Shown here: positions 2,982 through 62,382 of the stretch, in pieces
Layout: each line of letters opens with the position of its first letter
Position numbering within the stretch: the first letter of the stretch is position 1
Assembly: GCA_963743525.1 (NCBI GenBank)
Contig: CAVUQH010000024.1
Span: forward strand, 129,763 to 193,762
From: an uncultured delta proteobacterium
GTDB taxonomy: Bacteria; Myxococcota_A; Polyangia; Haliangiales; Haliangiaceae
Direction: 5' to 3'
Length of the DNA stretch: 64,000 bases
Translations under genes and position numbers: made by a program
Notes under the pieces: model-generated
What the model saw: only the letters and a program-made list of their open reading frames with translations
Database searches by the model: none
What the model was told of the DNA's origin: nothing

Positions 2982-3124
2982 GATGCGGAGTTTATGTCGC
3001 CCAGGCGCACCGCGGGCGCTCGGCTCGCCAAGTTGACACGGCTGGCACGCGCAGGCGACGCGGTTTCGGGCAGTTCAGCGGTGGCCCGGGCCTTGCTGGA
3101 GGAGCCGAGCAAAGGAGACCCCTG

Positions 3125-10352: not shown

Positions 10353-12162
10353 CTACGGCATCACGGTATCGACGGTGACGCGATGGTTGACCCAGTCGAA
10401 CTGGATCTCGTAATGGTCGCCGCTCTTGCCGACGGCTTCGAAGCGCGGCGGCGGCTCGGTGGCGATGCCGCCGAGGAAGCGGAACGACTCGAGGATCGGG
10501 CTGGCCGGCACCTCGTCGGTGGGCGCGGTCATCAGGCCGCGCGGGCTGGCGGGCGCGGCGGCGCCGGCCAGATCGAGCAACGCGGGATCCAGGGCGGCAG
10601 CCAGGCGGTCGGCGGGTAGCGTGGTCAGGTCGTCACCCAGTGCATAGGCGGGACCAGCCAGGGCGGCGGCCGCCGCCGACGCGGCGGCTTCGTCGGCGGT
10701 GTACGGCGCGCGCAGCTGGGTCTGGTCCGCGTCGGGCCAGATCGCCGGGAACAGGTAGTAGCGCGCCGCCAGGTTGCGCGCGGCGGCGGCGACCAGCGAC
10801 CAGCTGAGGGTGAAGCCGTCGAACGCCGTGTCGGGGCCGATGCGCAGCGAGTCGGCGATAGCCACCACCGGCAGTGTCGGCGCACCGCAGGCGTTGATGA
10901 TGGCGCCGTCGCCGGCTGCCTGGCGGATCAGTGTCAGGCCGGCGCGCATCGCCTCGATGCCGGTCGTGCTCCGGCTGCGCTGACCGGCGAGCGCCCCGGC
11001 GTAGAGGAAGTCGAGCTTGAAGTAGGTGAAGCCCGCGGCGGCCAGGGCAGTGACGGCATCGGTGACCAGGCTCATCGACTCCGGGTTGGTGCCGTCGAGG
11101 ACGTAGTAGCGCTTCTGGCTGCCCGACAGCTGATGGACGATCGGCTGGCCGCTGGCGTCGCGGACGAACAGCTCCGGCGCCCGCTGCGCGGCTTGCGAGA
11201 TCGACGTTGACCAGGAACGGCGCCATCCACACCCCGGCGACCAGCCCGCGGTCGGTGATGGCGGCGCCGACCGCGTCCATGCCGCCGGGGAACTGGGCGT
11301 TGGCCTGCCAGTCGCCCCACGCCAGCTCCCAGCCGTCGTCAACTTCGACCAGCGGCATGCCGACCGGATCGAGCGACGTAGCCACGGCGTCGACGTGGTC
11401 GGTGATCAGCGTGGCGTCGATATCGGCGAAATGTTCGTTCCACGAGTACCAGCCGCCCGGCGGGCGCTGTGGCGCCACGTCCGGGTGGGCGGCGGCGACC
11501 TGCGCCGACAAGAGATCCATCGCCGACACCGGCGTCGGCGCCGCACCGAGGAAGATCGGCTCGCTGGTGGCGCCGTCACCCAGCGGCTCGCGCGCAGCGT
11601 CGTAGATGACGTTGACATCGACGAGATCGTCGTCGCGACGGTGCGCGGCGAAACCGGTGACCGCGTGCTTGGCCGAAACCGCGCCGGCGACGAGCACCGG
11701 ATCGGTGTCGCCGTCGCGCCACAGCGCCGCGTGATACGACACGCCGATGGTCTCGTCGATCGGATCGCCGCTGGCGGCCGCGAGCATCGCCGGAGCGCCG
11801 TCGTCGGCGATGTCGAGGACCCGCGGAAGCTCCACCGTGCCGGAGAAACCCCACGACTGGTAGCCCTGCTGGTGCATCGCCGTGGCCGACAGCCCCGGCA
11901 GCCGCAGGCGCAAGCCGCTCGACGTCCCCGGTGCGGTCATCGTCACCAGCACGCCGCCGTCGACCTCGGTCAGCGACAGCTCGGCGTCAACCCAGCCGCC
12001 CTCGTAACTCTCGGCGCGCACGTCCTCGAGACAGAAGCCGTCGAGGGCGATGCGCCAGCTGCCGTCGGCCCGCTGGCCGGTCGCGCACGTCCCGCCGCCA
12101 CCGCCGCAGCCGGCAGCCAGCCACGACACGACGCAGATCACAGCCAGGCTCGAGCGACGCAT
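10353..12162 (-). pseudogene. Alpha-galactosidase (melibiase, GH27/GH36-like) lipoprotein, interrupted by a 1-bp frameshift near 11180-11200
   Basis: ORF 10633..12201 N-terminal 335 aa carry alpha-galactosidase motifs (GGWYSWNEHF, VEVDDGWELAWGDW, GLVAGVWMAPFLVNVDLA). ORF 10353..11342 in another frame continues with ELFVRDASGQP...FTYFKLDFLYAGA (KLD catalytic region). Lipoprotein signal MRRSSLAVICVVSWLAAGC. Confidence 0.75.
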
Positions 12163-13050
12163 GGACGCCAGTATGCCCGATTCGCCCCGGGGCGCGGGCA
12201 CCCCGGTCGCGACCTCCCCGGAAAGCGATCCGGGGCATCGGCGCCCCGGCGGCCCCCGCGATTCCGCGCCTCTCCGCCGGCACGGCGCTCGCTCTATGGC
12301 CGGGCATGAAGCTCTTCTCCACCGCCTGCACCCACATCGGACGACGCGACAACAACGAGGACGCCCTCGCCTGCGAGCCCGAGCTCGGCCTGTTCGCCGT
12401 GGCCGACGGCATGGGCGGCTACGAGGGCGGCGAGGTCGCCAGCCGCCTGGCCGTCTCCGCGCTGACCGACTTCATCGGCCGCAACGCCGCCGACGACGAC
12501 GTCACCTGGCCGTACGCCATCGACCCCGCGCTGACGTTCGACGAGAACATGGCGCGCATCGCCGCGCGCATCGCCGACGATCAGATCGCGGCCCGGCGGG
12601 TCGGCGACCTGCGACAGATGGGCGCGACCCTGGCGATGATGCTGACCCGCGGCGAGCAAGCGGTCATCGCTCACGTCGGCGACAGCCGCATCTACCGGCT
12701 GCGCGGCGGCCGGCTCGAGCAGCTGACCCGCGACCACTCCGCGTACGAAGAGCTGCTGGCCGCCGGCGCCGACCTGCCGCCGCGCGACGAGTTTCCTCAC
12801 TCCAACATGATCACCCGCGCGCTGGGCATCGGCGGCCAGGCCGAGGTCACGACCCTGTCGCTGCGTCCAGGCGACCGCTATCTCTTGTGCACCGACGGCC
12901 TGACCGACGCGGTGCCGGACGAGGTCATCGCCCAGCGGCTGGTTGCCGGCGGCGCCAACGACGCGACCTGTCGCGCGCTGGTCGACGAGGCCTATCGCCG
13001 CGGCGGCCGCGACAACATCACCGCGGTGCTGGTCAACGTCGCCGCCGAGG

Positions 13051-15306: not shown

Positions 15307-15959
15307 ATGTCCGAGCAGACGACCCGCGTTCGCGATGTGTTCGACGACTGGGCCCGCCGCGGCCGCGCCGAGGGGATGGAGCGAGGCCACGGCCCGACCG
15401 CCCGCCAGGGGTTCGACCGGCTCGAGGTCGGCGCCGGCACCCGCTACCTGGATATCGGCTGCGGCAACGGCTACACCGTCCGCTGGGCGGCGGCCGCGGG
15501 CGCCCGCGCCACCGGGCTGGACGTGTCGGCGGAGATGATCACCCGCGCGCGCGACGGCGGCGGCGTCGGCTGGGCGGTGTCGACTTCGTCTGCGACGCCT
15601 TCCCGTCGTCGCAGCTGCCCGACGACACGTTCGACGCCGTCTTCTCGATGGAGGTCTTCTACTACCTCGACGATCTGGCCGCCGGGCTGGCGGCGGTGAC
15701 GTCGCTGCTCCGCCCCGGCGGACGCTTCGCCTGCGTGGTCGACTTCTACGGCGAGAACGAGGCCAGCCACAGCTGGCCGGAAGAGATGAACCTGCCCTTG
15801 CAGCTCCTGTCGGAGGCCGACTGGCGCGCGGCCATGGAAGGTGCCGGGCTGCGGGTCGTCGATCAGGCGCGGCTGCGCGCCCCGCTCGCGGCCGGCGAGA
15901 CGCCGACGTGGAAGCACCGCGAGGGCAGCTTGCTGACCCTGTCCACGCGCGACGCCTGA
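15307..15959 (+). pseudogene. Class I SAM-dependent methyltransferase, interrupted by a 1-bp frameshift near 15565-15580
   Basis: ORF 15271 frame gives the SAM-binding motif YLDIGCGNGYTV...GLDVSAEMI. ORF 15648 frame gives the C-terminal part FPSSQLPDDTFDAVFSMEVFYYLDD...LLRPGGRF. Inserting one base in ggcggcgtcggctgggcggtgtcgac restores continuity. Confidence 0.7.
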
Positions 15960-30815: not shown

Positions 30816-30985
30816 GTAGGATATTGTAGGTACAAACCGCTGGGGGCGGCAAGAAAACCGCCGGTGCTGCTCCGCGACGGCACAGGCTGCTCCGGCGCGA
30901 ACCACGCCCGCCACGCGGGTTCGCCCACTTGCCCGCGGCACGGACGTTGCTCTTCTCCGCGATGAACAGCCGGAGGAGACGCCGC

Positions 30986-33016
30986 ATGAGTGAACGCGAA
31001 GTCCGTGAGCGCGACATCCTGGTCGCCCCCAACGAGTACGCCTACGTCCAGGACCTGACCAAGGGCGACATCGTCCTCTACGTCGGGCCGACCAAGATCA
31101 GCCTGTCCAACACCGAGCGCATGGTCATCCTGCGCGACGGCCGGTTCGTGCCGGTGCGTGGGGACGAGGCCGGTCTCGGCGTGCACCCGTTCGTCGAGGC
31201 CAGCTCGTCGCAATACATCATCCTCGACAACCCGGCCGCCGACGCCGAGGCCAGGCCGGTCAAGGGCGCCTGCTCGGCAGTGCCGCTGAGCATGGGCCGC
31301 ACGATCGTCGTGCCCGGTCCCGCCCGCTTTCCCCTGTGGCCGGGGCAGCGCGCCCAGGTGATCGACGGCCACCAGCTGCGCGACGACGAATACCTGGTGG
31401 TGCGCGTCTACGACGACGACGGCTCGGGCGCACCGATCGGCACCGAGCAGATCATCCGCGGCAGCGACGTGTCGTTCTACGTGCCGCCCAGCGGACGCGA
31501 AGTGGTGCCCAACGCCGGCGGCCGCTACGAACGCCAGGCCTGGCGACTCGACGGCCGCGGCGGTCTGCACCTGCGCGTGACTGCGCCGTTCGAGGCCGGT
31601 GACGGTGACCAGGTGCCGGCGGGCAGCTACCAGCCTGGGCAGGATCTGTTCCTGCGCGGGCGCGAGGGCTACTTCTTCCCCACCGATTCGCTCGAGGTGC
31701 TGGGCGCCGTCGAGCCGATCGCGCTGGCCGAGCGCGAGGCGATCTACGTGCGCGACCACGCCACCGGACGGATCGCCACCGTCGCCGGGCCGCGCACCTT
31801 CCTCCTCGATCCGATCCGCGAAGAGCTGGTGCGCCGCCGCCTGGATCCGGCGACCCGCGTCCATTATCACGTCGCCGCGGCCGGCGACGATCGCGCACCC
31901 ACCATCTATGTGCCGCCCAGCACCGCGGTCATGGTCACCGCGCGCGACCGCCGCGAGGTGGTAATCGGCCCGACGACCCGCGTGCTCGCCTACGACGAAG
32001 AGCTGGAGACCCTGACGCTGTCGACCGGCCGGCCCAAGTCCGACGACCATCTGTTGCCCACCTGCTTCTTGCGCATCCAGGGCAACAAGGTGTCGGACCG
32101 GGTCACGGTCAAGACCGCCGACCACGTGGAGCTGGAGGTCAACCTGTCGTATCGAGTGTCGTTCGCCGGCGACAGCGAGCGCTGGTTCAACGTCAAGGAC
32201 TACGTCGGCCTGCTGTGCGACCACCTGGCGTCGATCATCCGCGCCGCCGCACGGGCGACGCCGATCGAGTCGTTCCACGCCCGGTCAACCGACGTTCTGC
32301 GCACGGCGATCCTCGGACCGCGTGCCGACGGCGGCGAGCGCGAGGGACGCCACTTCGTCGAGAACGGCATGTGGGTCTACGACGTCGAGGTGCTCGACGT
32401 GCGCATCCTCGACGACGACGTCAACGAGCTGTTGTGCGACGCCCAGCGCGTGGCCATCGTCTCCGACATCACCCGCAAGCAGGCCGAGCTGCGCCTCGGC
32501 GACCAGGCGCTGGAGCAGCGGGTCGAGCGCGAGATCCTCCAGGCCCGCGCCGAGACCGACGCCGCCCGCGCCGCGCTCGAGGCCCGCACCCGCGAGCTGG
32601 CACTGGCCGAGGCCGGCACCCGCGTCGAGGTCGATCGCCTCGAGCGAGTCGGCCGCGCCGCCGCCGAAGCCGACGCCCTCGAGCGCGTCGAGCGAACCCG
32701 CCTGGCTCTGGCCGCAGACGAGAGCGAGGTCGAGCGCCGCCGCCTGGAAGCCCGCGCCGCCGCCTTCCGCTCCGAGATGGAAGCGATCGCCCCCGAGCTG
32801 ATCGCCACGCTCAAGAGCGTCGCCGGGCAGAAGCTCGCCGGTGAGCTGTCGCGCAACCTCTCTCCGCTGGCGATCCTCGGCGGCGACAGCGTCGCCGACG
32901 TCGCCTCACGCCTGCTCGCCCACCTGCCGCTCGGCCCTGGCCGGACCAATGGCAGCGTCGACCTCCGCGCCCTGCTCGGCCTGGGAGACGACCCCGACGA
33001 GCCCGCGGACGCATAG
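30986..33016 (+). CDS. Major vault protein (MVP) homolog: N-terminal MVP repeats, shoulder domain and coiled-coil cap-helix region
   Basis: Strong RBS ccggaggagacgccgcATG. ILVAPNEYAYVQDLTKGDIVLYVGPTKISLSNTERMV resembles MVP repeat 1 ([37 protein letters not shown]). LSTGRPKSDDHLL...TADHVELEVNLSYRVSF...DYVGLLCDHLASIIRAAARATPIESFHARSTDVLRTAILG aligns to the MVP shoulder region (SAGRPK...TADHARLQLQLAYNWHF...[40 protein letters not shown]). Long Glu/Arg/Ala coiled coil as in the cap-helix domain. Confidence 0.85.
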   Translation: MSEREVRERDILVAPNEYAYVQDLTKGDIVLYVGPTKISLSNTERMVILRDGRFVPVRGDEAGLGVHPFVEASSSQYIILDNPAADAEARPVKGACSAVPLSMGRTIVVPGPARFPLWPGQRAQVIDGHQLRDDEYLVVRVYDDDGSGAPIGTEQIIRGSDVSFYVPPSGREVVPNAGGRYERQAWRLDGRGGLHLRVTAPFEAGDGDQVPAGSYQPGQDLFLRGREGYFFPTDSLEVLGAVEPIALAEREAIYVRDHATGRIATVAGPRTFLLDPIREELVRRRLDPATRVHYHVAAAGDDRAPTIYVPPSTAVMVTARDRREVVIGPTTRVLAYDEELETLTLSTGRPKSDDHLLPTCFLRIQGNKVSDRVTVKTADHVELEVNLSYRVSFAGDSERWFNVKDYVGLLCDHLASIIRAAARATPIESFHARSTDVLRTAILGPRADGGEREGRHFVENGMWVYDVEVLDVRILDDDVNELLCDAQRVAIVSDITRKQAELRLGDQALEQRVEREILQARAETDAARAALEARTRELALAEAGTRVEVDRLERVGRAAAEADALERVERTRLALAADESEVERRRLEARAAAFRSEMEAIAPELIATLKSVAGQKLAGELSRNLSPLAILGGDSVADVASRLLAHLPLGPGRTNGSVDLRALLGLGDDPDEPADA

Positions 33017-33069
33017 TCGGCGGGGCGGATTGGGCTTGGACTCCTTCGGCATCTCGCGTATGTGAAGGT

Positions 33070-34653
33070 GTGCGTACCCGGCCAGTCCTCGCGCTCTCCG
33101 CCCTGCTCTTGGCCTCCGGCTGTGGCAACGACCCGCCGCCGACCATCGACTTCGCCGCGCCGGGCTCGATCTCGGCGCCGTCGGGCAAGGGCAGCTTTCG
33201 CTTCGGCGCGTCGACGGCGGCGACGCAGATCGAAGACATGGACGAGCACACCGACTGGTGGGCGTGGACCGCGCCGGAGGCGATGGGCGGGCTGGGCAGG
33301 GACACCTTCGTCGGCGACGCGACGATGGGCTACAGCAAGGCGATCGACGACATCGACCTGCTCGAGGCGATGCACCTCGACTCGTATCGCTTCAGCATCG
33401 AGTGGGCGCGCATCGAGCCGCAGCCGGGGGTGATCGACGAGGCCGCCCTGGCCCACTACGACGCGCTGATCGACGCGCTGGTCGAGCGCGGCATCAAGCC
33501 GATGGTCACCATCCACCACTTCTCCAACCCGACCTGGGTCGCCGATCCGCGGGTCACCGGCTGCCCCGACGGCGTCACCGCCGACTACCTGTGCGGTTGG
33601 AACTATCCCGACGGCGCCGACGCCATCGTCGCGGCGATGGCGGCCCACGCCCAGCTGCTGGCCGAGCGCTACGGCGACCGGGTCGACGAGTGGGCCACGG
33701 TCAACGAGCCGGTCAACTACCTCATCGCCAGCTACGGCGTCGGCTTCATGCCGCCGGGGCGCAGCCTGCTGATCAGCGACTTCCCCCGCTTCATGGACGT
33801 CTTCCGCGGCTACGTGCGCGGGCACGTGGCCATGTACGACGCGCTCAAGCAGTACGACACCATCGACGCCGACGGCGACGGCGTGGCCGCCAGCGTCGGC
33901 CTCACCCTGAGCGTGGCCGAGTGGGTGCCGGCGCGCGACAACCTGCCCAGCGACAACCCGGACGACATCGCCGCCGTCAACCGGGTGCGCAACGCCTATC
34001 ACTACGAGTTCGTCGAAGCGCTGCGACAGGGCGCCTTCGACGCCAACCTCGACGGCACCTACGAGGAGAGCCACCCGGAATGGGCGGGCAAGCTCGACTG
34101 GCTGGGCGTGCAGTACTACAGCCGCATCAGCGTGTCGGCCGACCGCGCCATCATCCCCGGCGTCAACGCGATGGTCTGTTTCGGCGGCTTCGACCTCGGC
34201 TCGTGCCTGGCGCCCGAGGATCCCACCCACTGGGTTCCGACCATGAGCTACGAGTATTACGAGCCGGGGCTGTACAACGTGCTGACCGACTTCTCCCAGC
34301 GCTGGCCCGACCTGCCGCTGATGGTCACCGAGTCGGGCATCGCCACCGATGTCGGCAAGCGGCGCGCCGAGCACGTGGTCCGCTCGCTGGAGCAGATCCA
34401 GAAGGCGATCGACGCCGGCGTCAACGTGCGCGGCTACTACCACTGGAGCCTGACCGACAACTTCGAGTGGAACCAGGGCTTCGCGCCTCACTTCGGCCTG
34501 TACCGGGTCGACTACGACACCTACGAGCGGACGGCGACCGAGGGCGCCACAGTGCTGGGCGATATCGCCGGCGCGCGCCAGCTGACCGGCGACCAGCGCA
34601 AGGAGTACGGCGGCCTCGGACCGATGACTCCGGAAGACGGCGCCGGCCAGTAG
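33070..34653 (+). CDS. GH1 family beta-glucosidase, lipoprotein
   Basis: GTG start with gaagg RBS. Lipobox LLLASGC. GH1 motifs YRFSIEWARIEP, TVNEP (acid/base), VTESGIA (nucleophile region), YYHWSLTDNFEW. Confidence 0.9.
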   Translation: MRTRPVLALSALLLASGCGNDPPPTIDFAAPGSISAPSGKGSFRFGASTAATQIEDMDEHTDWWAWTAPEAMGGLGRDTFVGDATMGYSKAIDDIDLLEAMHLDSYRFSIEWARIEPQPGVIDEAALAHYDALIDALVERGIKPMVTIHHFSNPTWVADPRVTGCPDGVTADYLCGWNYPDGADAIVAAMAAHAQLLAERYGDRVDEWATVNEPVNYLIASYGVGFMPPGRSLLISDFPRFMDVFRGYVRGHVAMYDALKQYDTIDADGDGVAASVGLTLSVAEWVPARDNLPSDNPDDIAAVNRVRNAYHYEFVEALRQGAFDANLDGTYEESHPEWAGKLDWLGVQYYSRISVSADRAIIPGVNAMVCFGGFDLGSCLAPEDPTHWVPTMSYEYYEPGLYNVLTDFSQRWPDLPLMVTESGIATDVGKRRAEHVVRSLEQIQKAIDAGVNVRGYYHWSLTDNFEWNQGFAPHFGLYRVDYDTYERTATEGATVLGDIAGARQLTGDQRKEYGGLGPMTPEDGAGQ

Positions 34654-36946: not shown

Positions 36947-37710
36947 CGCTGGCAGTGGCGACGCTGGCCGGTGCCTGCTCCGGCCAGTCGCCGGCGACCG
37001 ACGCCGGCGTCGGGGGTGCCGACGCCGCGCGCACCACCGACGCCACACCGCCGGCCGACGCCGGCCCCTGCCCCGCCGACATGGCGCTGGTCGGCGCGAC
37101 CTGCATGGACTACTACGAGGCGCCCAACCTGCCCGGCGCCCTGCCGCTGGTGATGTACTCGTTCCACGAGGCCGAGGCGTGGTGCAGCGCGCGGCAAAAG
37201 CGCCTCTGCTTCGAAGACGAGTGGCTGACCGCCTGCGCCGGTGCCGATGGCAACGCCTATCCGTACGGCAACACCCGCGTTCCCGGCCTGTGCAACGACG
37301 AAGAGACCTGGCTCACCTACGATCAGACTCTGCTCAATGGCTGGCCCGACGGCGTCTCGGCCCCCGACGTGACCTCCCTCGACGATCTGCTGGCGCGAGC
37401 GCGCGCGGTATCGCCGGCGGCAAAGGCAGCGGCCGACCACGTCGCCGCCCTCTACCAGGGTGAAGGCAGCGGTGACAACGCCGACTGTCAGGGCGCCGCC
37501 GGTGTGCTCGACCTGGTCGGCAACGTCGAGGAGTGGACGCGGCGACGCACCAGCGGCGGGACCGAATACGACGGCAACCTCAAGGGCCGCTACTGGGCCG
37601 AGTCGCGCACCTGCCAGAGCAACGTCACCGTGCACGCCGATCCGTTCCGTTTCTACGAGATCGGCTTCCGCTGCTGCCGCGACGCTTACCCCGACGCCGC
37701 GTCGGACTGA
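36904..37710 (+). CDS. Formylglycine-generating-enzyme (FGE-sulfatase / SUMF1 / EgtB / PvdO) family protein, lipoprotein
   Basis: Lipobox LTLAVATLAGAC. FGE-sulfatase signatures AEAWCSARQKRLCFEDEWLTACAG, AYPYGN, VLDLVGNVEEWT, YEIGFRCCRD. Start overlaps the last 43 nt of the repeat-protein gene. Confidence 0.8.
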   Translation: MQGHRPRQRRLLPLTLAVATLAGACSGQSPATDAGVGGADAARTTDATPPADAGPCPADMALVGATCMDYYEAPNLPGALPLVMYSFHEAEAWCSARQKRLCFEDEWLTACAGADGNAYPYGNTRVPGLCNDEETWLTYDQTLLNGWPDGVSAPDVTSLDDLLARARAVSPAAKAAADHVAALYQGEGSGDNADCQGAAGVLDLVGNVEEWTRRRTSGGTEYDGNLKGRYWAESRTCQSNVTVHADPFRFYEIGFRCCRDAYPDAASD

Positions 37711-39752
37711 TCGAGCAGGTCGCGTACGCGACCGGCCAGGTCATCGATGGTGAACGGCTTGGCCACGAAGGCGACACCGTGGCCAAGCTCGTCGGCGGCC
37801 ACCAATCCGGCCGGCGCGTAGCCGGAGACGAAGATGACCCGCAGCTCCGGGTCCGAGGCGCGCATCCGCCGAGCGAGCTCGTCGCCGCGTATCCCCGGCA
37901 TGGCGACGTCGGTGATCAGCAGAGCGATCGGATGACGGCCACCGTCCATCGCCGCCAGTGCCTCTTCGCCGTGCGCGGCGGCGACGACCTCGTAGCCGCG
38001 CGCCCGCAGCCCTTCGGAGACCACGCGGCGCAAAATTCGCTCATCCTCGACCACCAGAATGCGCTCGGTGCCGTCAAAGGACCGGCGACTGACGGGCACC
38101 TCGCTGGCGCTGGCTCCCTCGCCCTCGCGGTAGGGCAGGTAGACGGTGAAACGCGCACCGCCGGTCGGCCCCGCCTCGACGTCGATGAAGCCACCGCTCT
38201 GGCGGACGATGCCGTAGACCGTGGACAGTCCGAGGCCGGTTCCCTGCCCCGGCTCCTTGGTGGTGAAGAACGGCTCGAAGATGTGCGGGCGAACCTCGTC
38301 GGAGATGCCATCGCCCTGATCGGTCACTTCGATGCCGACGTAGGTGCCGGCCGTGGCCTCGCGCTCCTCGTCGTCAGGAAGCTGAACTATGAAGGTGCGC
38401 ACGTCGAGCCGCCCGCCCCGAGACATGGCGTCGCGCGCGTTGACCACCAGGTTGACGATCACCTGTTCGAGCTGGGCCGGGTCGGCGACCACCACACAAC
38501 GCCGGTCGTCCAGGGACACTTCGAGCTGAATGTCGTCGCCGAGCAAGCGGCCGAGCAGCGTCTGCAACTCGGAGACGATGTCGTTGACGTTCAGCTCGCG
38601 CGGCTCGAGCACCTGACGGCGACTGAACGCCAGCAGTTGGCGGGTCAGCGTGGCCGCGCGCTCACCGGCGGCGCAGACGTCGTCCAGATCGCCGGCCAGC
38701 GCGGCATCGGTGGCACGTCGCCGCGCCCGGGTACCCAGCATCAGGATGATCGTGAGCAGATTGTTGAAGTCGTGCGCGATGCCGCCAGCCAGGCGGCCGA
38801 TGCTCTCCAGCCTGCGCGCCCGCTGCAGCTGCGCCTCGCTGCGCAACAGCGCTTCCTGCGCCCGCTCGCGCTCGGCGTGCTCGGCCTCGATGCGCCCGGT
38901 TGCCAGTCGCACTTTGCGCCGCAGCGACCACGACCAGGCCAGCGCCAACCCGGCGGCCGCGGCGAGCATGGCGCCGGCGAACAGCAAATACCGCGGCAGC
39001 GACGTCGAATCGCGCGGCTCGCCGAACCAGCGGTCGTAGATGACCTCGTACTCGCCGTTGGCCTTGATCGTGGCCAACCCGTGCTCGAGCCCAACCGCCA
39101 GATTGTGACGACCCGCGCGCACGGCGAACGCGTGCGGTCGGGGGTTGAGCGGCGCGCCGACACCGATCACGTTATCGATGCCCAGGCGTCGCAGGGCTGC
39201 TCGCCCGGTGACCTCGGACACCAGGGCGCAATCAGCCTCCCCGTCCGACAGCCGCGTCAGCGCCTCCGGCTGGCTGAGCGCGGGCAGCGGAATGACCCCT
39301 CGTTCCAGGTGCTCCCCGGTGTACGAGGCCGCCTGGAACAGCACCTTCTTGCCCGACATGTGCCCGGGAATGCAAGCAGTGGTCTCGCCGCGGCGGACGA
39401 AGATCTGGTCGTGCGCCATGCCGAACGTGGCAGCGAAATCGACCACCTCGGCGCGCTTGGCCGATACACACATGTCCGAGAGGTCGATGCCCTCGCCGTT
39501 GTCGAGCCGATCGCGGATGGTCGGCCACGGCCCCAGCTCGACCTGGATGTCCCAGCCCGCGGCGTCGCCGATGGCCCGCACCAGGTTGACGGTGAACCCG
39601 TGAGCGTGGCCGTCCGGGTCCTTCCACGAGTACGGCGGGAAGTCCTCGTTGGCGCCGAAAACGACCACAGGCCGCTTCTCCGAGCGCGCGTCATCGGCCG
39701 CAATGGAGAAGGCAGCAATAGCAGCAACCCCCAGCAGTCCGCCTTTACCCAC
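37686..39752 (-). CDS. Hybrid sensor histidine kinase: periplasmic solute-binding (SBP_bac_3-like) sensor, TM, HisKA, HATPase_c, receiver domain
   Basis: Signal peptide [22 protein letters not shown]-box [13 protein letters not shown]1 (DQGDGI), G2 (GTGLGLS) boxes. Receiver ILVVEDE...DVAMPG...K. Start set at an internal GTG; the track ORF starts at a TTG at 39947. Confidence 0.85.
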
Positions 39753-39888
39753 TGCGCACAATGTAGCAGGTTCCAGGACAACCTTCGACCAGGGTACAGC
39801 TTCCCGGTTCTCAGGGGAGAACCCTGCCGACTCAGCCAGGCCTGGTCGTTGACCACGGCTGCGCCCTTCTGCCAAGGTGCGCAGCCCG

Positions 39889-40939
39889 ATGACGTCGCGC
39901 AATCTATCGATCACGCTGCTTGCTGCTGCGCTGTCGGCCTGTGGCAATCATGGCGCGATCGGCACGGACGGCGGCGACGGTGGACGGGTCGGCGACGATC
40001 GCCAGATCGACGTCTTCTCCGCCGAGCCGATCTACTTCGGCGATCCAGATCGGCGCACGGTCGACACCGAGGTGACCCTGCCCGGGGCCAATCTCTGGTA
40101 CGAAAACGTCTCGCTCCACCTGGGCCTCTCCTGTCCGACCGGCGGCTGCGACTGGTGGGATCGAGTCGGGCGCGTCTCCGTGGTCGACAACCCCGGCAGC
40201 GCCGACGAGCGAGAGATCGAGATCGCCCGGTTCGTCACGCCGTATCGCATCGGCGGCGACTTCGACATCGACGTCACCGATGTGTCGCCTCTGCTCCGCG
40301 GCACGCGCACCATTCGGCTGTTCATCGACACCTGGGTCGGTCCCGGCGACGCGCAAGGAGCCGGCTGGCTGGTCGACGTGTCGCTCGACTACACCGGGGG
40401 CATTGCCACGCCCGAGCCGTACGCGGTGATCCCGATTCTGGTCGCCCGAGAGCGTCGTCTACGGCGACCCGGCGCAACCGACCGCCCGCCGGACCACGGT
40501 CACGGTGCCCGCCGGCGCCGGCGACGTGGCCTTGCGCGGCATCGTCACCGGTCACGGCCAGGGCAACGCCGAGAACTGCGCCGAGTTCTGCTCGCGCGAG
40601 CACACCTTCCGCGTCGGCAGTGTCAACGACACCCGCACCATCTGGCGCGACGACTGCCTGACCACCGCGGTCCCCGATCAGCAAGGCACCTACACCCTGG
40701 CGCGCGCGGGCTGGTGTCCGGGGGCCACCGTTCACTACTGGTTCGGCCTGGTCTCGGCCGGCGTGCCCGCCGGCGGCGGCGACGTCGACGTCTCCTACGA
40801 CGTGGCGGCCTACGAGAACACCTGCCGCCCCGACGCCACGTCGTGCACCGGCTGCGTCGGTGGCAGCTGCGACTACGACGGCGGCTCCCACACCGAGCCG
40901 CACTACCTGGTTTCGGCCCTGCTGGTCCTGTACCGCTGA
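39889..40939 (+). pseudogene. Peptide-N4-(N-acetyl-beta-glucosaminyl)asparagine amidase F (PNGase F) homolog, lipoprotein, interrupted by a 1-bp frameshift near 40440-40460
   Basis: Lipobox LLAAALSAC. CDWWDRVGRVSVVDN...EIARFVTPYRIGGDFDIDVTDVSPLLRG...LFIDTWV aligns to PNGase F (CDEWDRYANVYVKN...EIGRFITPYWVG...EIDVTDFKSLLSG...IYTETWL). C-terminal half continues in the ORF 40505 frame (LRGIVTGHGQGNAENCAEFCSREHTF...AGWCPGATVHYW vs TTISGWGHAKPYDAGSRGCAEWCFRTHT...AGWCPGMAV). Confidence 0.75.
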
Positions 40940-40972
40940 GCCGCCTGGCCCGGGTCGAGCTATGCTCTGCAG

Positions 40973-41464
40973 ATGTCCGGCGAGGACGACGAGGATCTGT
41001 TCAGCCAGGCGATGCAGGGCGTCGACCGAATCGAGAATCGCGACCGCGTCGGCCCCAAGCGCAAGCGCACCGGCGCGAAACGGATCGCGTCCCCGCCTCG
41101 GCTGAAGCCCGACGGCGACGGCGACGGCGGTCGCGTCGCCAGCGTCAACGACAAGCGAATGGCCGACCTGCGCGCGGGACGGATCGCGCCCGACGAACGC
41201 CTGGACATGCACGGTCTGCGCGCCGACGACGCCCGCGCGGTGCTGGCCGAACGCGTACGCGCGGCGGCCGAGCGCGGTGCCCGCTGCCTGCTGGTGATCC
41301 ACGGGCGCGGCGCCCACTCCGGCGGCGCCGGCGTCCTGCCCGAGCTGGCGGCCGACGAGCTGATGGGCGGCCGCGCCGCCGCCCACGTGCTCGCGTTCTG
41401 TCGCGCGCAGCCGAAAGACGGCGGCGCCGGAGCGCTGTACGTGCTGCTCCGGCGCCGGCGCTAG
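40973..41464 (+). CDS. Smr domain protein (MutS2-related small nuclease)
   Basis: LDMHGLRADDARAVLAERVRAAAERGARCLLVIHGRGAHS matches the Smr signature (LDLHG...IHGKG). Confidence 0.8.
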   Translation: MSGEDDEDLFSQAMQGVDRIENRDRVGPKRKRTGAKRIASPPRLKPDGDGDGGRVASVNDKRMADLRAGRIAPDERLDMHGLRADDARAVLAERVRAAAERGARCLLVIHGRGAHSGGAGVLPELAADELMGGRAAAHVLAFCRAQPKDGGAGALYVLLRRRR

Positions 41465-41482
41465 ACTGCGGGTTGACTCAGC

Positions 41483-42265
41483 TCAGTGGCAACCGCCGCA
41501 GTCGCCGCCGAAGCAGCCCGGGCAGCAGTCCCAGCCGCAGTACCAGTGGTCGCAGTAGACGCAGGCCTCGTCGTGGAGGCAGCAGACGTCGTACCACGAG
41601 CAGCCGAGGTCGCACTTCTCCACTTCGGCCTGTCCGTCCACCGGCATCGTGCGGTAGTGCTGGACGTACGGCGCGACCATCAGGTTGGTGTGGACCAGGC
41701 CGTTGGGATCGTCGAGGTTGTAGACCTGGTCGTCCCACCAGGTGTCGCGGGTGCTGTCGGTGGCGTTGGGATCCTGCAGCTCGCGGATCAGCACTTCCTC
41801 CTGCCACATCAGGGCAAAGCGCACCGTTGACCGATCCATCTTGTTGGTGGCGTCGAACAGCTGCTGCAGCGCCTTGCTGTAGTGGGGCAGAAGCGTGTTG
41901 ACCGGCAGCGCCGACGGCTGCTGCGCGGCCGCGCGGGCGAGCATCCCCAACGAGGCGCCGACGTCCTGATCGGTGCCGAGCGGCACCGTCAGGCTGGTGA
42001 CCAGCTTGTTGTCCTCGGTGCGCACGGTGGCCTGGACCTCGTCGCCCACGACCTTCGACTCCAGCCGCAACGCCACGTCGCCGTCGCGATAGGTCGCGTA
42101 GATGCCGTTGACCGTGTCGCCCTCATACAGGTTGAAGCCGTTGACAATTGGCTCGTTGTGCACCGTGTCGCCCGTGGGCGGGCTGGAGATGTCGGTGGTG
42201 CAGGCGCCCGCGAGCAGAGCCCCGAACGCAAACGTCACAACTTGCAGTCCTACGAAACGCTTCAT
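41483..42265 (-). CDS. Lipoprotein with extreme Cys-rich C-terminal tail
   Basis: Lipobox ALLAGAC. C-terminus CDLGCSWYDVCCLHDEACVYCDHWYCGWDCCPGCFGGDCGGCH (16 Cys in the last 42 aa). Confidence 0.7.
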   Translation of the reverse strand: MKRFVGLQVVTFAFGALLAGACTTDISSPPTGDTVHNEPIVNGFNLYEGDTVNGIYATYRDGDVALRLESKVVGDEVQATVRTEDNKLVTSLTVPLGTDQDVGASLGMLARAAAQQPSALPVNTLLPHYSKALQQLFDATNKMDRSTVRFALMWQEEVLIRELQDPNATDSTRDTWWDDQVYNLDDPNGLVHTNLMVAPYVQHYRTMPVDGQAEVEKCDLGCSWYDVCCLHDEACVYCDHWYCGWDCCPGCFGGDCGGCH

Positions 42266-43702: not shown

Positions 43703-45008
43703 CTACGGGATCGTCGCCGCCGGCGAGATGATCGAGGTCGTGCCCACCATCGGGGTCTTGGGCGAGTACAGGACGATGAAGCCGGCGCCGCCGCCGCCGC
43801 CGCCGCCGCCCCGCGCCGCGACCGTCGAGCTCGAGCCGGCGAGCGTGCCCGCCGCCGAGCCGTCGCCGCCGGCGCTGCCGTTGCCCTGCTGGGCTCCGCC
43901 CGCGGCTGCCTGCGCGCTGGGCTTGCCGTCCTCACCCGCGGTCGCCGCGGACTGATCGCTGCCGCCGCCGCCGCCGCCGCCGTTGGCCGCCAGCACGGCG
44001 CCGTTGTCGATCGAGATGGTGTCGGCTTCCAGACCGATCATGCCGCCACTGCCGCCGCCGCCGGCGCCGGCGCGAGTGCCGCCGCCGGGTCGCCCCCGGC
44101 ACCGCCCGCGTGCACGGTGCCGCTGACCGTGAGGTTGGCGCGCGCGGCCACGTGCACGGCGCCGCCGCCGGGTGCGCCGGGGCCCTGCAAATCGGCGGCG
44201 TTGTTGGGCGCGCCGTCGCGCCCCGCGCATCCGCCGCGGATCGCCGCCGGCGCGGCGCCAAGGTGACGCCGCCGGCGCCGCCGGGGATGCCGCTGGTGTT
44301 GACGGTGTCGCCGCAGTCGTGGCCGTCGCCGCCTTCAGTCCGCCGTCGCCACCGTCGCCGGCGAACGCGCCGGCGCCGCCGCCGCTGCCGCCGTGCTGCG
44401 CGCAGGTCGCCCCCGGATCGGGCGGCGAGGCCGGGCACGCCGACGGGTCGGCGCCGGCGCCCTGGGTGTAGAAGAAGCCGGGTATCTCGATCCAGCTACT
44501 GCTGGCGTCGAGGTGCCACTCGATGGTGGCGTCGTTGGTCAACACGATGATCAGCGGGTGGCTTCCGGTGACGCGCAGCGTGGAGCTCGACGCCCAGCGA
44601 GAAACCGCTGGTGAGGATGCGGCGGGCGTCTCCGACCATGGTGCTGGGCGGCATGGTCGCCGGACCGAACGGCGGCTGCAGCCCGCCGGTGTCGGTGTCG
44701 TAGAGGTAGAGCCCGGTGCCGCTGAGGTCGAGGGACGGACCGGGCGCCGGCTCTCCGCCGCTGCACGGATCGTAGTAGAGCGGGTCGTAGTCCCAGGCGC
44801 AGTTGGCGTCGGGGCTGCCCGGCGCAGCATCGGCGCTGGCCGGCCGCGCGTCGGGGCTGCCCGTCGCGGCGTCAACGCTGCCCGGTCGAGCATCGATCGA
44901 CGAGCCGCCGCCGTCGTCGCCGCCGAAGCCGACGCCGGATGGATCGAAGCGGCAGGCGGCCAGCGCCAGCGCCAGCGCCAATACGGTGAGTCCCGTGCGG
45001 ACGATCAT
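43703..45008 (-). pseudogene. Gly-rich secreted lipoprotein fragmented by several frameshifts (pseudogene or error-prone GGx-repeat region)
   Basis: Lipoprotein start MIVRTGLTVLALALALAAC at 45008 (ATGA overlap with GNAT stop). Coherent segments recur in three frames: ...NCAWDYDPLYYDPCSGGEPAPGP... (frame A); ...LRVTGSHPLIIVLTNDATIEWHLDASSSWIEIPGFFYTQGAG... (frame B); ...MIGLEADTISIDNGAVLAANGGGGGGG...GAGFIVLYSPKTPMVGTTSIISPAATIP (frame B/C end). Segments are separated by Arg-rich nonsense. Confidence 0.55.
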
Positions 45009-45436
45009 CCGCGGCGGCCCAGCGCCGCGCGGAGCAAGCAGCCGTCCTCGGACGGACGGAACCCGCGCTCGACCAGCCACGCGGTCACGTGCGATGCGTC
45101 GGGGTGGGTCGGCCGGACGACGTTGTAGAGGTAGGCCAGGCCGCGCGCCCGCGCCTCTTCCTCGAGCTTCTCCAGCACGAACGAGCCGACGCCGTGGCGC
45201 TGGACACCCGGCGCCACCGCCAGGAGGATCTCGGCGTCGCCCCAGACCACGTCCAGCCAGCCGTAGGCGACCACGCGCCCGTCCTCCTCGACCCGCCACC
45301 ACTCACCGGGAACGATCGCGCCAGGGGCCAGCTCGCGAAACCGCCGGTCGAACACGCCGGTCGGCGCCTCCCCGACGATCCCCTGCTTGCCCTCGTCCCA
45401 CACCGGTAGCTTCTCTCGGATCCAGGTAAGCGCCAC
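45005..45436 (-). CDS. GNAT family N-acetyltransferase
   Basis: GTG at 45436 with aaggaggggg RBS 7 nt upstream. Acetyl-CoA motif region AVAPGVQRHGVGSFVLEKLEEEARARGL. Confidence 0.8.
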   Translation of the reverse strand: MALTWIREKLPVWDEGKQGIVGEAPTGVFDRRFRELAPGAIVPGEWWRVEEDGRVVAYGWLDVVWGDAEILLAVAPGVQRHGVGSFVLEKLEEEARARGLAYLYNVVRPTHPDASHVTAWLVERGFRPSEDGCLLRAALGRRG

Positions 45437-45605
45437 GTGCCCCCTCCTTCGGCTGCTCCTGTCAACGGTATCCGGGCCGGGAACGCGAATCAACGAACAC
45501 CGTTCCGCGGCCGGCCCGGTCGGTCCGGAACCGCCCGATTCAGCAGCGAAATCGCCGTTCGGCGGCCGCTGGGGCTCGCCATCGGCGGGCCCGGCATGGT
45601 ATGCG

Positions 45606-45782
45606 ATGGCCATGGTCGACAAGATGTTCGGCAAGCCGCCCGAGGACATGACCGAGGGCATGTGGACGCGCCACTGGGTCCTCGCGCTGGGCGCGATGGG
45701 GGCGCTGATGGTGATCATCGCCCTCGTCTACGGAATGTGGGTCGTGAGCGACGGTCTGTCGTCCGGCCACATCCGCATGTAG
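45606..45782 (+). CDS. Small hypothetical membrane protein (about 58 aa)
   Basis: MAMVDKMFGKPPEDMTEGMWTRHWVLALGAMGALMVIIALVYGMWVV single TM. Weak support. Confidence 0.35.
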   Translation: MAMVDKMFGKPPEDMTEGMWTRHWVLALGAMGALMVIIALVYGMWVVSDGLSSGHIRM

Positions 45783-50979: not shown

Positions 50980-52448
50980 GACGACCGCGTCGCCCCGACC
51001 TGTGGCTGGGCCTGGGGCTGGTGGCGCTGTTCGCGAGCGCTCTACCTGGCGACCATGTGTCGCGCCGTCTACTGGTACGACAGCGCCGAGTACGTCGCCG
51101 CGGCGGTGACCATCGGCATCCCCCACCCGCCCGGCTACCCGCTGTACACGCTGATCGCGCACACCTTTACCTGGCTGCCGGTCAACCCCGCGATCGCGGT
51201 CAACGCGGTGAGCGCGGTGTTCGGCGCCGTCGCCGTCGGGCTGTCGTTCGGCGCCGGGCGCGCGCTCGGCCTGCAGCGGGCGCCCGCGCTGTTCGCCGCC
51301 GCGCTGCTCGGCGCCGGCACCGTGTTCTGGGGCAACGCGGTGGTCGCCGAGGTCTACACCCCGGGGCTGGCGGTCTTCTTCACCGTCGTCTGGCTGCTGG
51401 CCCGCGGCGTGCGCGAGGACCGGCCGCTCCTGCTGGTCGGTGCCAGCGCGCTGGCCGGCGCCGGCATGGGCGTGCACATGTCGATCGCCACCACCGGGCT
51501 GGGGCTCGGCCTCCTGGTCTTCGCCACCGGCCTGCCGATCGAAGCGCCCGCGCGATCTGGCGCGACTGTTCTCGCGCGAGCAGCTTCGCCGTCGCCTGCT
51601 GGTGGCCGGCGGCTGCCTGCTGGCCGCCGCCGCCGCCGCCGCGCTGGTGTTCGCCTGGCTGCCGCTGCGCGCGTCGATGCACCCGAAGCTCAACTTCGGC
51701 GATCCGGAGACGTGGCAGCGCTTCGTCTGGCACGTCACCGGCGGCAACTACAAGCACTGGTTCGACGTGCCGACCACCGGTGGCCGCGTCGCCCGCATCG
51801 CCACCACGCTGGGCGAGCAGCTCGGCTGGGTCGGCCTGGCGCTGGCCGCCGCGGGTGTCGGCGCTGGGCCTGCGCCGCCGCCCGCTGATCACCGCCGCGC
51901 TGATCGCGATGGCCGCCGGCAACCTGTACTTCTTCTTCGACTACAAGGTGCACGACGTCGAGGTCTTCTTCCTGCCGACCACCGCGACGCTGTGCCTGCT
52001 GGCCGGCTTCGGCGTGCAGGAGATCGCCGGCCTGCTTCGTCCCGGCCTGTCGCGCGGCATCGCCGTGGCGCTGGGCGTGCTGCCGCTGGCGCTGGCGGTC
52101 GCCAGCTTTCGCCAGAACGATCTGTCCGACTACACCGCCGCGCGCGACTACGGCGAGGCGCTGACCCGCGAGCTGCCGCGCGGCGCCGTCATCGCCAACT
52201 TCACCACGCCGCCCGAGTGGCAGCGCGACGCGGTCTTCCACGACTACTTTCAGATCGTCCGCGGCGACCGCCCCGACGTCACGGTGCTGACCCGGCCGCC
52301 CGCGCAGCGGCTGGGCGAGCTGGTCGCCAGCGGCCGACCGGTCTACCTCTACTACCCGGTCGATCTAATGATGAGCGGCAGCTTCGCCCTGGCGCCCGAA
52401 GGGCACCTGGTCCGCGTCCGCCTCAGCGGCGGTCCGGGCGCACGATGA
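50976..52448 (+). pseudogene. DUF2723 / TMEM260-like polytopic membrane protein (putative glycosyltransferase), interrupted by at least three 1-bp frameshifts
   Basis: GTGA overlap with WS/DGAT stop. Frame A gives MRRPRRPDLWLGLGLVALFASAL. Frame B gives LYLATMCRAVYWYDSAEYVAAAVTIGIPHPPGYPLYTLIAH... (DUF2723 signature) to about 51535. Frame C gives RDLARLFSREQLRRRLLVAGG...WHVTGGNYKHWFDVPTTGG...LALAAAGV. Frame A again gives PLITAALIAMAAGNLYFFFDYKVHDVEVFFLPT...YLYYPVDLMMSG to 52448. Confidence 0.7.
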
Positions 52449-59520: not shown

Positions 59521-59532
59521 AACCAGCATGTC

Positions 59533-61113
59533 CTATTCCTCGTAGGTCAGCGTGTCGCCGGGTGGCAGTGTGACCGGTATCGTCGGCGACATGCTGCTCA
59601 GCTTGCTGAAGTCGACCTCGCCCAGCGCCTCAGCCACTTCCTCGCAACTCGGGAACCGATGAGCCGGGTCCTTTTCCAGGCAGCGAACGATGACTACTTC
59701 CAGGTCCGTGGGCAGGGGCGCACCGATACGAATGGAGGGTGAGACCAGGGGCTTCGCCCCGTGCGCGCGCAACACCGCGAAGGTCGACTCTGATGGAAAT
59801 GGCGCATCCCCGGTGACGGCGAAGTACATAGTGGCGCCAAATGAATAGACGTCGGATCGAGCGTCCGCCTCCTTGCCCTGAATCACCTCTGGTGCCATGT
59901 AGGACGGAGTCCCTCCGGTCCAGCCCTCGACCGTCAGCGTGGTGGCGGAGCCCGCGGCCATCTTCACGAGGCCAAAGTCGACGAGCTTGACCTGATGGTT
60001 CTTGCCGCCGATCTGGGAAACCATGATATTGCCCGGCTTGACGTCGCGGTGGACCAGCGACATCGAGTGCGCTTCCGCCAACGCGGCAGCGATCTGGCTG
60101 AACAGGCGCTGGGCGAGCGCCGGTGACAGCGGGCCCGATTCGGCCACGAGCTCGCGGAGGGTCTTGCCGCGGATGTACTCCATCGCGTAGTAGGGGAACC
60201 CATCCTCGGTCCAGCCAAAGTCGAATACCCGGATCGTGTTCGGGTGTGACAGACGCGACGTTGCTCGCGCTTCGCGCTCGAACCGCGCCACGCCGGGACC
60301 ATCGAGACGGTTGTGCATGAGGAACTTGAGCGCGACGTCGGTCTTCAAGGAGCGGTCGTAGGCGCGCCAGACCTCTCCCATCCCGCCAGCGCCCAACTTC
60401 TCGGACAAGCGGTACCGACCGATCATCTTGGCCTCGAAGAGCTGGCGCCGGAGCCTCCACGCCGCATCGCTGGCGAGCACGACCAGACCAAGACATCCGT
60501 AGATCCCGGCCATGTCAACGAGGAACAATGTGCGAGTGTCGTGATCCGCGAACTGTGCCGCCACCCGCGGCATGAAGAAGGACGCCACCAACATCGTCAG
60601 CGGATAGAGCGTAGCGGGAATCCCGGAAAGAATGAGCCCCCTCTTCCAGTGGGCCGGAAGTGCCGCGGCCCGAACGGTCAGCACCTGGATCACGCCGACG
60701 AAGTAAGGGCTACGAACTCCACCTACCCCGAGAGCCATCACGCTGATCAGCAAGCCGGCCGAACCGAACGCCACCACGTTGACCGTTACGGCGACCGCTC
60801 GCGCTGGCCAGCGGCGCAGAGTCGCAATCGAGGCAACCAGCACGGCTGCTCCGGCCGCGCGACAAATCAGAAAGAACGAGAGCGGTGCTGCGTCGAGCTG
60901 CGACACGACGATGGCGTCCAGCCCAACGAACGCGATCCAACAACCCAAGCCAATCCGCAACACCTGTCGCAAGCGCAGCAGCTCCCAGGCGAAGTCACTC
61001 TGCTTCGCGGAGCGAATCCGCAAATCGCCGCTGTTGAGCTTGCGCGCGGTCCCGTCCGCTCCGCCGGAGGCCCCATCTCCCACCGTCCCAATCGGCGATT
61101 CCACCGCATCCAT
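59533..61113 (-). CDS. Membrane-anchored Hanks-type Ser/Thr protein kinase (N-terminal polytopic domain, C-terminal kinase)
   Basis: Six or more TM helices, then GRYRLSEKLGAGGMGEVWRA, ALKFL, HRDVKPGNIMV, DFGLVK, GTPSYMAPE. ATG at 61113. Confidence 0.9.
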   Translation of the reverse strand: MDAVESPIGTVGDGASGGADGTARKLNSGDLRIRSAKQSDFAWELLRLRQVLRIGLGCWIAFVGLDAIVVSQLDAAPLSFFLICRAAGAAVLVASIATLRRWPARAVAVTVNVVAFGSAGLLISVMALGVGGVRSPYFVGVIQVLTVRAAALPAHWKRGLILSGIPATLYPLTMLVASFFMPRVAAQFADHDTRTLFLVDMAGIYGCLGLVVLASDAAWRLRRQLFEAKMIGRYRLSEKLGAGGMGEVWRAYDRSLKTDVALKFLMHNRLDGPGVARFEREARATSRLSHPNTIRVFDFGWTEDGFPYYAMEYIRGKTLRELVAESGPLSPALAQRLFSQIAAALAEAHSMSLVHRDVKPGNIMVSQIGGKNHQVKLVDFGLVKMAAGSATTLTVEGWTGGTPSYMAPEVIQGKEADARSDVYSFGATMYFAVTGDAPFPSESTFAVLRAHGAKPLVSPSIRIGAPLPTDLEVVIVRCLEKDPAHRFPSCEEVAEALGEVDFSKLSSMSPTIPVTLPPGDTLTYEE

Positions 61114-61239
61114 CCTGTCAAGGATCACACAGCGGCAGCAAAGAGACAGGGTTAGATTTCTGGCCGATTTTCGCAAACCCGCGCGGCCAGCACTCTGCCG
61201 CCCGTGTGTTACACTGAGCGCCTCCTGCTTCCTCGCACG

Positions 61240-62331
61240 ATGGGCATGCCTGGACGTTCATCTGTTCTCATCGTTGATGACGAACGAGAACATTGCGACC
61301 TGCTGGCGCTGATCCTGCGCCGTCGCTACGACGTGCACACGTCCACGTCGCCGACGAAGGCGCTCGAGATGGCGCGCAGCACCAGCTTTGCGGTGGTACT
61401 CGCTGACTACCGCATGCCTGAGATGACCGGAACCGACTTTCTCTCCGCACTCGCCGAGATTCAGCCGGACTGCATGCGTCTGCTTGTCACCGCGTACGGT
61501 GACACCGGCGTGCTGGGCAAGGCGATCAACCAGGCCCGAGTCTACCGCTTCATTCCCAAGCCAGTGGACCCGGAGCAGCTCCAGCTCGACATCCAGCGAG
61601 CCATCGAACACAGACAGGCGCAACTGGACCTGGGCCGCGCCCAGGGGATGGCCTTGGTCGGCAGTCTCGTCGGCTCGGTCATCCACGACCTGCGAAACTA
61701 CATGGTGGTCCTGCGGACCACGCCCGATCTCCTCGAGGAGGCCGATCCCGAAGGCGTTCGCGAGCTGGCGCACAGGCTCCGGCGAGTCGAGCAAAACATC
61801 GGTGACCTGGTGGAGGAGTTGCTGGCGATCGCACGCGGGCGCCCGCCGCGCTACGAGCTGACACCGTGCAACTTCGAGGAGATCGTCAGATCAGCGATTT
61901 CCCTGGCGCAGCACGATCCACAGCTCGCCCAGCGCGCCATCGCCGTGCAGATCGATGAAGGTCTTCCCGAGATTCCGCTCTCCCGAAGCCGCTGTGACCG
62001 AATGATCGGCAACCTCCTGCGCAATGCTCGGGAGGCGACGGCCAAGGACGGACACATCGCGGTACGCCTCCACAAGGGCCCGAACGAAACTCTCGAGCTC
62101 GAAATCGAAGACGACGGTCACGGGATTGCACCTGAAATCGTCGATCGAATCTTCGACCCGATGTTCTCGACCAAGGCTGATTCCGGCGGCTCTGGTTTCG
62201 GCCTTGCGATCTGCAAGACGGTGGTCGAAGGCCACGGCGGCACGATTTCCTGCGAGAGCCAGCCCGGGCGAACGGTCTTCTCTCTTCGTCTCCCCATGAG
62301 GCCGTCCGCCAGCCCCATCATCAGTGATTGA
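61240..62331 (+). CDS. Response-regulator receiver fused to histidine kinase (REC-HisKA-HATPase_c)
   Basis: SVLIVDDEREHCDL...VLADYRMPEMTG...K (REC). H-box VIHDLRNYM. N-box NLLRNAREA. G-boxes DDGHGI and GGSGFGLAI. Confidence 0.85.
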   Translation: MGMPGRSSVLIVDDEREHCDLLALILRRRYDVHTSTSPTKALEMARSTSFAVVLADYRMPEMTGTDFLSALAEIQPDCMRLLVTAYGDTGVLGKAINQARVYRFIPKPVDPEQLQLDIQRAIEHRQAQLDLGRAQGMALVGSLVGSVIHDLRNYMVVLRTTPDLLEEADPEGVRELAHRLRRVEQNIGDLVEELLAIARGRPPRYELTPCNFEEIVRSAISLAQHDPQLAQRAIAVQIDEGLPEIPLSRSRCDRMIGNLLRNAREATAKDGHIAVRLHKGPNETLELEIEDDGHGIAPEIVDRIFDPMFSTKADSGGSGFGLAICKTVVEGHGGTISCESQPGRTVFSLRLPMRPSASPIISD

Positions 62332-62382
62332 GCCCGGTCGTGAACCGAAGTACGGTGGAGCGCTTCCACCGCCGGCAAGACC

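Follow-up and report, generated by a model that had tools for sequence, protein, structure and literature searches.

The window, the 64 kb stretch of DNA analysed here, carries on its plus strand a PNGase F-family gene that starts at an ATG (39889), ends at a TGA stop (40937-40939) and changes reading frame on the way. The frame opened by the ATG begins with MTSRNLSITLLAAALSACGN... and leads through a Gly/Asp-rich stretch into sequence that can be aligned to PNGase F. Three-frame translation placed the N-terminal ~183 codons in this frame and the C-terminal 166 codons in the +1 frame, where no stop intervenes between 40430 and the TGA; downstream of the shift, the original frame continues as an Arg-rich, meaningless sequence that extends to 41901. 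Removal of one T restores a product of 349 amino acids. The C-terminal part has a GC3 of 0.94, and three-frame translation revealed no further stops or indels in either half of the gene. Its parts are listed in Table 1, together with the two flanking genes and the other genes of the window in which a change of frame was detected. Residues are numbered from the ATG at 39889, those of the structural model from a GTG at 39877.

Table 1. Coordinates of the PNGase F-family gene, its neighbours and further frame-shifted genes (positions in the 64 kb window)
Feature	Position	Strand	Basis
Lipoprotein signal peptide MTSRNLSITLLAAALSA|C, lipobox L-S-A-C, Cys18 predicted to be lipidated	39889..39942	+	read from sequence
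Gly/Asp-rich flexible linker, ~20 residues, between lipid anchor and catalytic module	39943..40005	+	model pLDDT <50
First jelly-roll domain, N-glycanase_N	40006..40435	+	Pfam PF09112, 1PGS alignment, column counts
Frameshift site, one of two T's extra, shift +1	40436..40437	+	DNA alignment, three-frame translation, tblastn
Second jelly-roll domain, N-glycanase_C, +1 frame, including stop	40438..40939	+	Pfam PF09113, 1PGS alignment, column counts
4-Cys/His loop CRPDATSCTGCVGGSCDYDGGSH, residues 312-334, ahead of the last strand	40822..40891	+	column counts
Hybrid sensor kinase (SBP_bac_3, HisKA, HATPase_c, Response_reg), divergent neighbour	37686..39761	-	Pfam
Smr-domain gene, 33 bp past the PNGase stop, same strand	40973..41464	+	Pfam Smr 1.2e-19
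Lipase maturation factor gene, LMF1 and LMF1_C in different frames, junction 1913	3074..1394	-	Pfam
Melibiase (alpha-galactosidase)-like lipoprotein gene, insertion GAT[C]TCG near 11199	12201..10353	-	Pfam
SAM-dependent methyltransferase gene, -1 type shift near 15530 in a G/C-rich stretch	~15307..15959	+	Pfam
TMEM260-like/DUF2723 membrane glycosyltransferase-like gene, three frames	50980..52448	+	coding signal, translation

No PNGase F paralogue was found elsewhere in the 64 kb window. An Rfam scan of the whole window and a promoter and terminator scan of 39600-41600 returned no match. Scanning the protein against NCBIfam yielded no family-specific model, the sole match being a weak, LptM-like one to the signal peptide.

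The initial annotation had proposed a PNGase F homologue that the Pfam N-glycanase models should recognise, with four motifs and a catalytic Asp/Glu/Arg set in place, and our analyses bear out each of these points. The repaired protein scores 60-62 bits with N-glycanase_C (PF09113; cut-off 25) and 28-31 bits with N-glycanase_N (PF09112; 28.2 in the repaired protein, cut-off 22.4), and each unrepaired half on its own also exceeds the cut-off of its model. When PDB sequences were searched with phmmer, the PNGase F entries 1PGS, 3PMS and 1PNF were matched (1PGS at E=1.5e-23, with PNGase F residues 11-259 aligned), followed by zebrafish Ngly2 (9LWG) and the Bacteroides entry 3KS7. AlphaFold2, given an alignment of 46 sequences, produced a model with a mean pLDDT of 86.4 and a pTM of 0.84, in which only the signal peptide and linker (model residues 1-32) have a pLDDT below 50; it predicts a double jelly-roll fold of two eight-stranded beta-sandwiches side by side. 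Foldseek placed 1PGS at the top of its PDB matches (E=5e-19, target-normalised TM 0.79), ahead of 9LWG, 3KS7, 7ZGN and 4R4Z, and the top 18 matches were all PNGases or PNGase-fold entries.

The motifs CDWWDR and EIARFVTPY align with CDEWDR and EIGRFITPY of crystal PNGase F, IDVTDVSPLLRG pairs with IDVTDFKSLLSG, and RAGWCPG is present at the aligned position. Residue by residue, C51-C56, W59, D60 and R61 of PNGase F correspond to C82-C87, W90, D91 and R92 of the window protein; E118 and W120 to D147 and W149; W191 to H222; C204, E206, W207 and C208 to C230, E232, F233 and C234; and C231, R248, W251 and C252 to C256, R272, W275 and C276. The catalytic Asp60, Glu206 and Arg248 are matched by the identical D91, E232 and R272, and the chitobiose-binding set (W59, R61, W120, W191-or-His, W251) is retained as W90, R92, W149, H222 and W275. 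All six disulfide cysteines have aligned counterparts (C82/C87, C230/C234, C256/C276), and the three PNGase F disulfides C51-C56, C204-C208 and C231-C252 are predicted to be kept.

These positions are also well conserved across 268 relatives, with the catalytic Asp found in 248 and the Glu in 257; the Arg (261) and the His (264) occur in all relatives that align at those two columns. A His at the W191 position has been described as the rule in most members outside PNGase F itself (PMC12381499), and in Ngly2 the corresponding Asp and Glu are indispensable (PMC12753239). One family member from Sorangium sp. So ce381 (P0103) has CDPWAR in place of CDWWDR, so that the catalytic Asp is missing; this protein may be a paralogue without catalytic activity.

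The proposal that the protein is a lipoprotein was likewise borne out as a prediction. Its N-terminus fits the lipobox pattern [LVI][ASTVI][GAS]C with L-S-A-C, a textbook lipoprotein signal, and the lipobox Cys is conserved at 90% or more in the 46-sequence alignment of close relatives and is a Cys in 175 of the 268 relatives. Lipidation at Cys18 and a location at the cell surface would follow from this signal. The layout consists of the lipobox Cys, a linker of ~20 residues and the catalytic module, with no accessory domain. An extra loop containing C312, C319, C322, C327 and H334 precedes the last beta-strand; it is common to ~77% of the 268 relatives and was modelled at a pLDDT of only 55-71. 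To our knowledge, PNGase F has no such loop, as judged from its sequence and the three disulfides known in it. The four cysteines and the histidine could form two extra disulfides or a metal site, and the loop could alter specificity.

The closest known system is the type I PNGase F of Elizabethkingia meningoseptica (1PNG/1PGS/1PNF/3PMS), the best PDB match both by sequence and by structure. The two proteins share the two-domain double jelly-roll without accessory domain, the residues Asp60, Glu206, Arg248, Trp59, Arg61, Trp120 and Trp251, and the three disulfides, and PNGase F is secreted, as the window protein is predicted to be. They differ in that identity is only ~22-30%, that Glu118 is replaced by Asp, Trp191 by His and Trp207 by Phe, that the window protein would carry a lipoprotein anchor and linker where PNGase F has a plain signal peptide, and that the 4-Cys/His loop is additional. 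Other enzymes of the superfamily, namely PNGase F-II (4R4X/4R4Z), B. fragilis 3KS7, P. massiliensis 7ZGN, zebrafish Ngly2 (9LWG) and PNGaseL, contain the same catalytic module (Foldseek E 1e-16 to 1e-17). In contrast to the window protein, which has none of these features, they come with an N-terminal bowl-like domain, a PA domain, T9SS signals or glycan-utilisation operons.

In family and architecture the window protein matches the Myxococcota proteins named 'peptide-N-glycosidase F-related protein' by NCBI (Sandaracinus amylolyticus, Sorangium spp., Kofleriaceae MAGs); the Myxococcota relatives listed are 50-89% identical to it and are encoded by stand-alone ('orphan') genes. A HMMER scan of 1.84 billion cluster representatives returned 1541 clusters at 50% identity with E<=1e-3, 825 with E<=1e-10 and 179 with E<=1e-30. 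In a word-indexed search, at least 581 of the 8000 candidates scored were family proteins; nearly all of the best 120 of these have 300-425 amino acids and nearly all have both Pfam domains, and the named sources among these 120 are Kofleriaceae, Myxococcales, Polyangiaceae, Sorangium, Sandaracinus and Byssovorax. When genomes were scanned, members also turned up in Nannocystales, Haliangiales and several Oligoflexus MAGs, and the clusters with a named source are mostly from Myxococcota or Oligoflexus. The closest loci lie in Kofleriaceae and other Myxococcota MAGs, in agreement with the myxobacterial origin first suggested for this DNA. On the other hand, the accompanying statement that PNGase F-type amidases are phylogenetically restricted does not stand against the 825 clusters at E<=1e-10, the 1897 sequences of InterPro IPR015197 used for a tree in the PNGaseL study (PMC12381499) and the description of PNGase F as widespread in bacteria (PMC8812541). 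The window gene is a further member of a known, already annotated family.

The position of the frame change could be fixed by comparison with the two nearest loci, the Logan contig L025 (product 89% identical to the window protein) and the MAG L001 (product 77% identical). Where these read CCCGG-TCTGG and CCCGA-TCTGG, respectively, the window reads CCCGATTCTGG, so that in the DNA alignment one T is extra at 40436/40437. Without this T the translation becomes ...AVIPIWSPESVVYGDP..., which fits the family consensus AVIP(V/I)WSPxxVVYGDP. The two T's that include the extra base form a dinucleotide; there is no long homopolymer at the site. The shift is confined to the window copy: in 25 of 25 related loci, tblastn matched the N-terminal and C-terminal parts side by side without a change of frame. 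Otherwise, of the positions without variation in 45 relatives the window copy has retained all 55, and of the 46 conserved at 90% or more it has retained 42; its dN/dS against the Logan contig is 0.23 (Smr 0.26, kinase 0.13, thiolase 0.07). Metagenome contigs searched for the exact sequence around the frameshift, with either one or two bases permitted, gave 0 matches. Likewise, no record of an identical product was found for three window proteins (Smr, the 260-residue neighbour and the C-terminal ORF), by which a second assembly of this organism might have been recognised.

A scan of codon-position GC phase across the 64 kb window flagged further frame switches on the same strand (Table 1). 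Merging the frames of the Melibiase-like gene raised its Pfam Melibiase score from 24.7 to 43.5 bits, with a match that spans the junction, and the LMF1 and LMF1_C frames are joined by removing one T at 1913 (GTG[T]TCG). The merged methyltransferase gene matches the full Methyltransf_11 profile (1-95 of 95, 75.5 bits), compared with 1-36 and 33 bits when unmerged. The TMEM260-like gene appears to change frame near 51560 and near 51850, which would imply two +1 shifts; Pfam supports its N-terminal domain only. Altogether, the window contains at least four single-base frameshifts, and probably six, in ~55 genes, two of them in one gene. Its density of indel-type frameshifts is about one per 10-15 kb. 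Two other candidates were rejected. A split of a GNAT gene (45005..45727, minus strand) seen in tblastn is not a frameshift, the window having two extra G's relative to both nearest loci (~45350..45400) in the spacer upstream of this gene; these indels are intergenic and lie upstream of its GTG start. An apparent minus-strand frameshift at 14870-13054 was the mirror signal of a plus-strand kinase gene.

The initial annotation had stated that the gene carries a frameshift. The single extra T is confirmed in the sequence as given; as a feature of the gene it is not supported, given at least four such shifts in the window and 25 intact relatives out of 25. Several single-base shifts within one window, each in an otherwise well-preserved gene, favour an artefact, as do the two G's inserted in the non-coding GNAT spacer, and we consider it likely that the extra T is an assembly indel error and that the gene is intact in the organism. 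The isolate name of the L001 MAG starts with 'MFD', from which one might guess at a long-read soil metagenome survey as its source and at a like origin for the window. If the shift were real, the gene would be a pseudogene inactivated very recently in this strain, and its product would be an authentic N-terminal fragment of 183 residues followed by ~487 out-of-frame, Arg-rich residues (ORF 39889..41901). This reading, which we regard as rather unlikely, draws on the unambiguous shift outside any long homopolymer, on the lack of conserved partners, which makes an orphan gene plausibly dispensable, and on the Sorangium protein with CDPWAR, which indicates that function can be lost within the family. 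Moreover, tblastn over the ~15 kb comparable with L001 revealed no frame-shifted gene other than the PNGase gene, which speaks against an extreme local error rate. Against a pseudogene stand the absence of a second lesion, the 55 of 55 invariant residues, the high GC3 beyond the shift, a dN/dS that differs little from the Smr value and the intact state of all 25 relatives. In addition, at least three other genes of the window bear a like single-base lesion, one of them probably two, a pattern that would not be expected of natural pseudogenes in a free-living bacterium with a large genome.

Programmed +1 ribosomal frameshifting at AUU-C-UGG would account for two halves that are both intact and adjacent, which is its sole support. 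It can be effectively excluded: the shift is common to no relative, all 25 loci being in frame, no known +1 slippery or stall motif is present, and the next codon in the 0 frame is the common CUG rather than a stop or a rare codon. For transcriptional slippage the run is too short. Under an assembly indel, the full 349-residue protein would probably be made. More generally, 'pseudogene' or 'split gene' calls from this assembly need confirmation at the level of reads.

As for the genomic context, the divergent neighbour is indeed a hybrid sensor kinase with a solute-binding sensor, as first annotated. Its start is uncertain (TTG 39761, GTG 39752 or TTG 39875), and the spacer to the PNGase gene measures ~130 bp if TTG 39761 is used. 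In a synteny test, in which thirteen window proteins were compared with the 25 related loci by tblastn, synteny of the kinase, Smr and the other neighbours was limited to L001 and L025; none of these neighbours adjoins the PNGase gene in the remaining 22 loci, whose PNGases are at most 61% identical. All-against-all clustering of ORFs from 24 genome loci yielded no neighbour common to the family, and conserved co-location with glycosidases, transporters or a regulator was not found across these 24 loci. The window gene is an orphan, stand-alone gene. SBP_bac_3 is a periplasmic family that binds polar amino acids and opines, and not a sugar binder. Since the adjacency is limited to the two nearest loci and the sensor is of the amino-acid type, the kinase provides no evidence for glycan sensing, and the suggestion that its proximity points to N-glycan scavenging is not sustained.

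Considering all the above results, the gene probably encodes a PNGase F-type N-glycan amidase lipoprotein whose frame has been split by an assembly error. It would be the local ortholog of the stand-alone Myxococcota/Oligoflexia family, tethered to the cell surface through its lipobox Cys and carrying the PNGase F-type double jelly-roll module on a flexible linker of ~20 residues. By homology, the enzyme would release N-glycans by hydrolysing the amide bond through which their reducing-end GlcNAc is attached to Asn, with D91 and E232 (Asp60 and Glu206 of PNGase F) as the catalytic pair and with R272, W90, R92, W149, H222 and W275 holding the chitobiose core. The released glycan may serve as a nutrient obtained from soil glycoproteins of eukaryotic type, whether of fungi, plants, protists or invertebrates. 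Enzymatic activity, substrate range and nutritional role are all deduced from the sequence, and growth on soil glycoproteins would be the simplest role to propose; one linked to predation is possible.

Prior work on this group of enzymes gives some idea of what such a protein might do. [quoted passage not shown] Specificity was narrow in five of the six new PNGases, and one of them showed little activity on standard substrates (PMC12381499).

The latter finding also bears on the idea that the fold is retained without a role as an amidase for eukaryote-type N-glycans, the protein acting instead as a lectin or adhesin, or as an amidase for another glycoconjugate, which could be a bacterial N-linked glycan met during predation. 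The concentration of the family in predatory lineages (Myxococcota, Oligoflexus), the fact that bacterial prey mostly lack GlcNAc-Asn glycans and the presence in ~77% of relatives of a 4-Cys/His loop absent from PNGase F would fit such a role. We nevertheless judge it improbable, as the structural neighbours found by Foldseek are all PNGases, and as the nearly invariant catalytic Asp/Glu/Arg and chitobiose-contact aromatics argue for catalysis on the GlcNAc-GlcNAc-Asn core. We give similarly little credence to the combined view that the Myxococcota/Oligoflexia clade with the 4-Cys/His loop is a distinct subfamily, with a specificity tuned to glycoproteins of eukaryotic microbes or bacterial prey and deployed at the predator surface, of which the window copy is a genuine strain-specific loss.

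In practice, we suggest that the gene be annotated as a PNGase F-family lipoprotein, the significance beyond annotation being small. The myxobacterial/Oligoflexus clade as a whole is a possible source of deglycosylation enzymes with different specificities; the sourcing of such enzymes from PNGases of this kind is already being pursued (PMC12381499).

Some other features of the window may be recorded. A 728-residue MVP-like ORF (30830..33013, plus strand; MVP_shoulder 1.8e-30, Vault_3 repeat) lies directly upstream of a GH1 beta-glucosidase gene (~33025..34653), and is a bacterial example of such an ORF. A Gly/Ala/Arg-rich ORF of 396 residues (43703..44893, minus strand) has no Pfam match, and with such a composition its frame cannot be called reliably; conservation in L001 and L025 is limited to the two ends and does not extend to the central part. 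Finally, from ~59500 to 64000 the GC content falls from ~70% to 63-64% and the GC3 coding signal is weaker; this part of the window contains a Ser/Thr kinase gene (59533..61176, minus strand) and a receiver-histidine kinase gene (61204..62331, plus strand), and may be recently acquired DNA.
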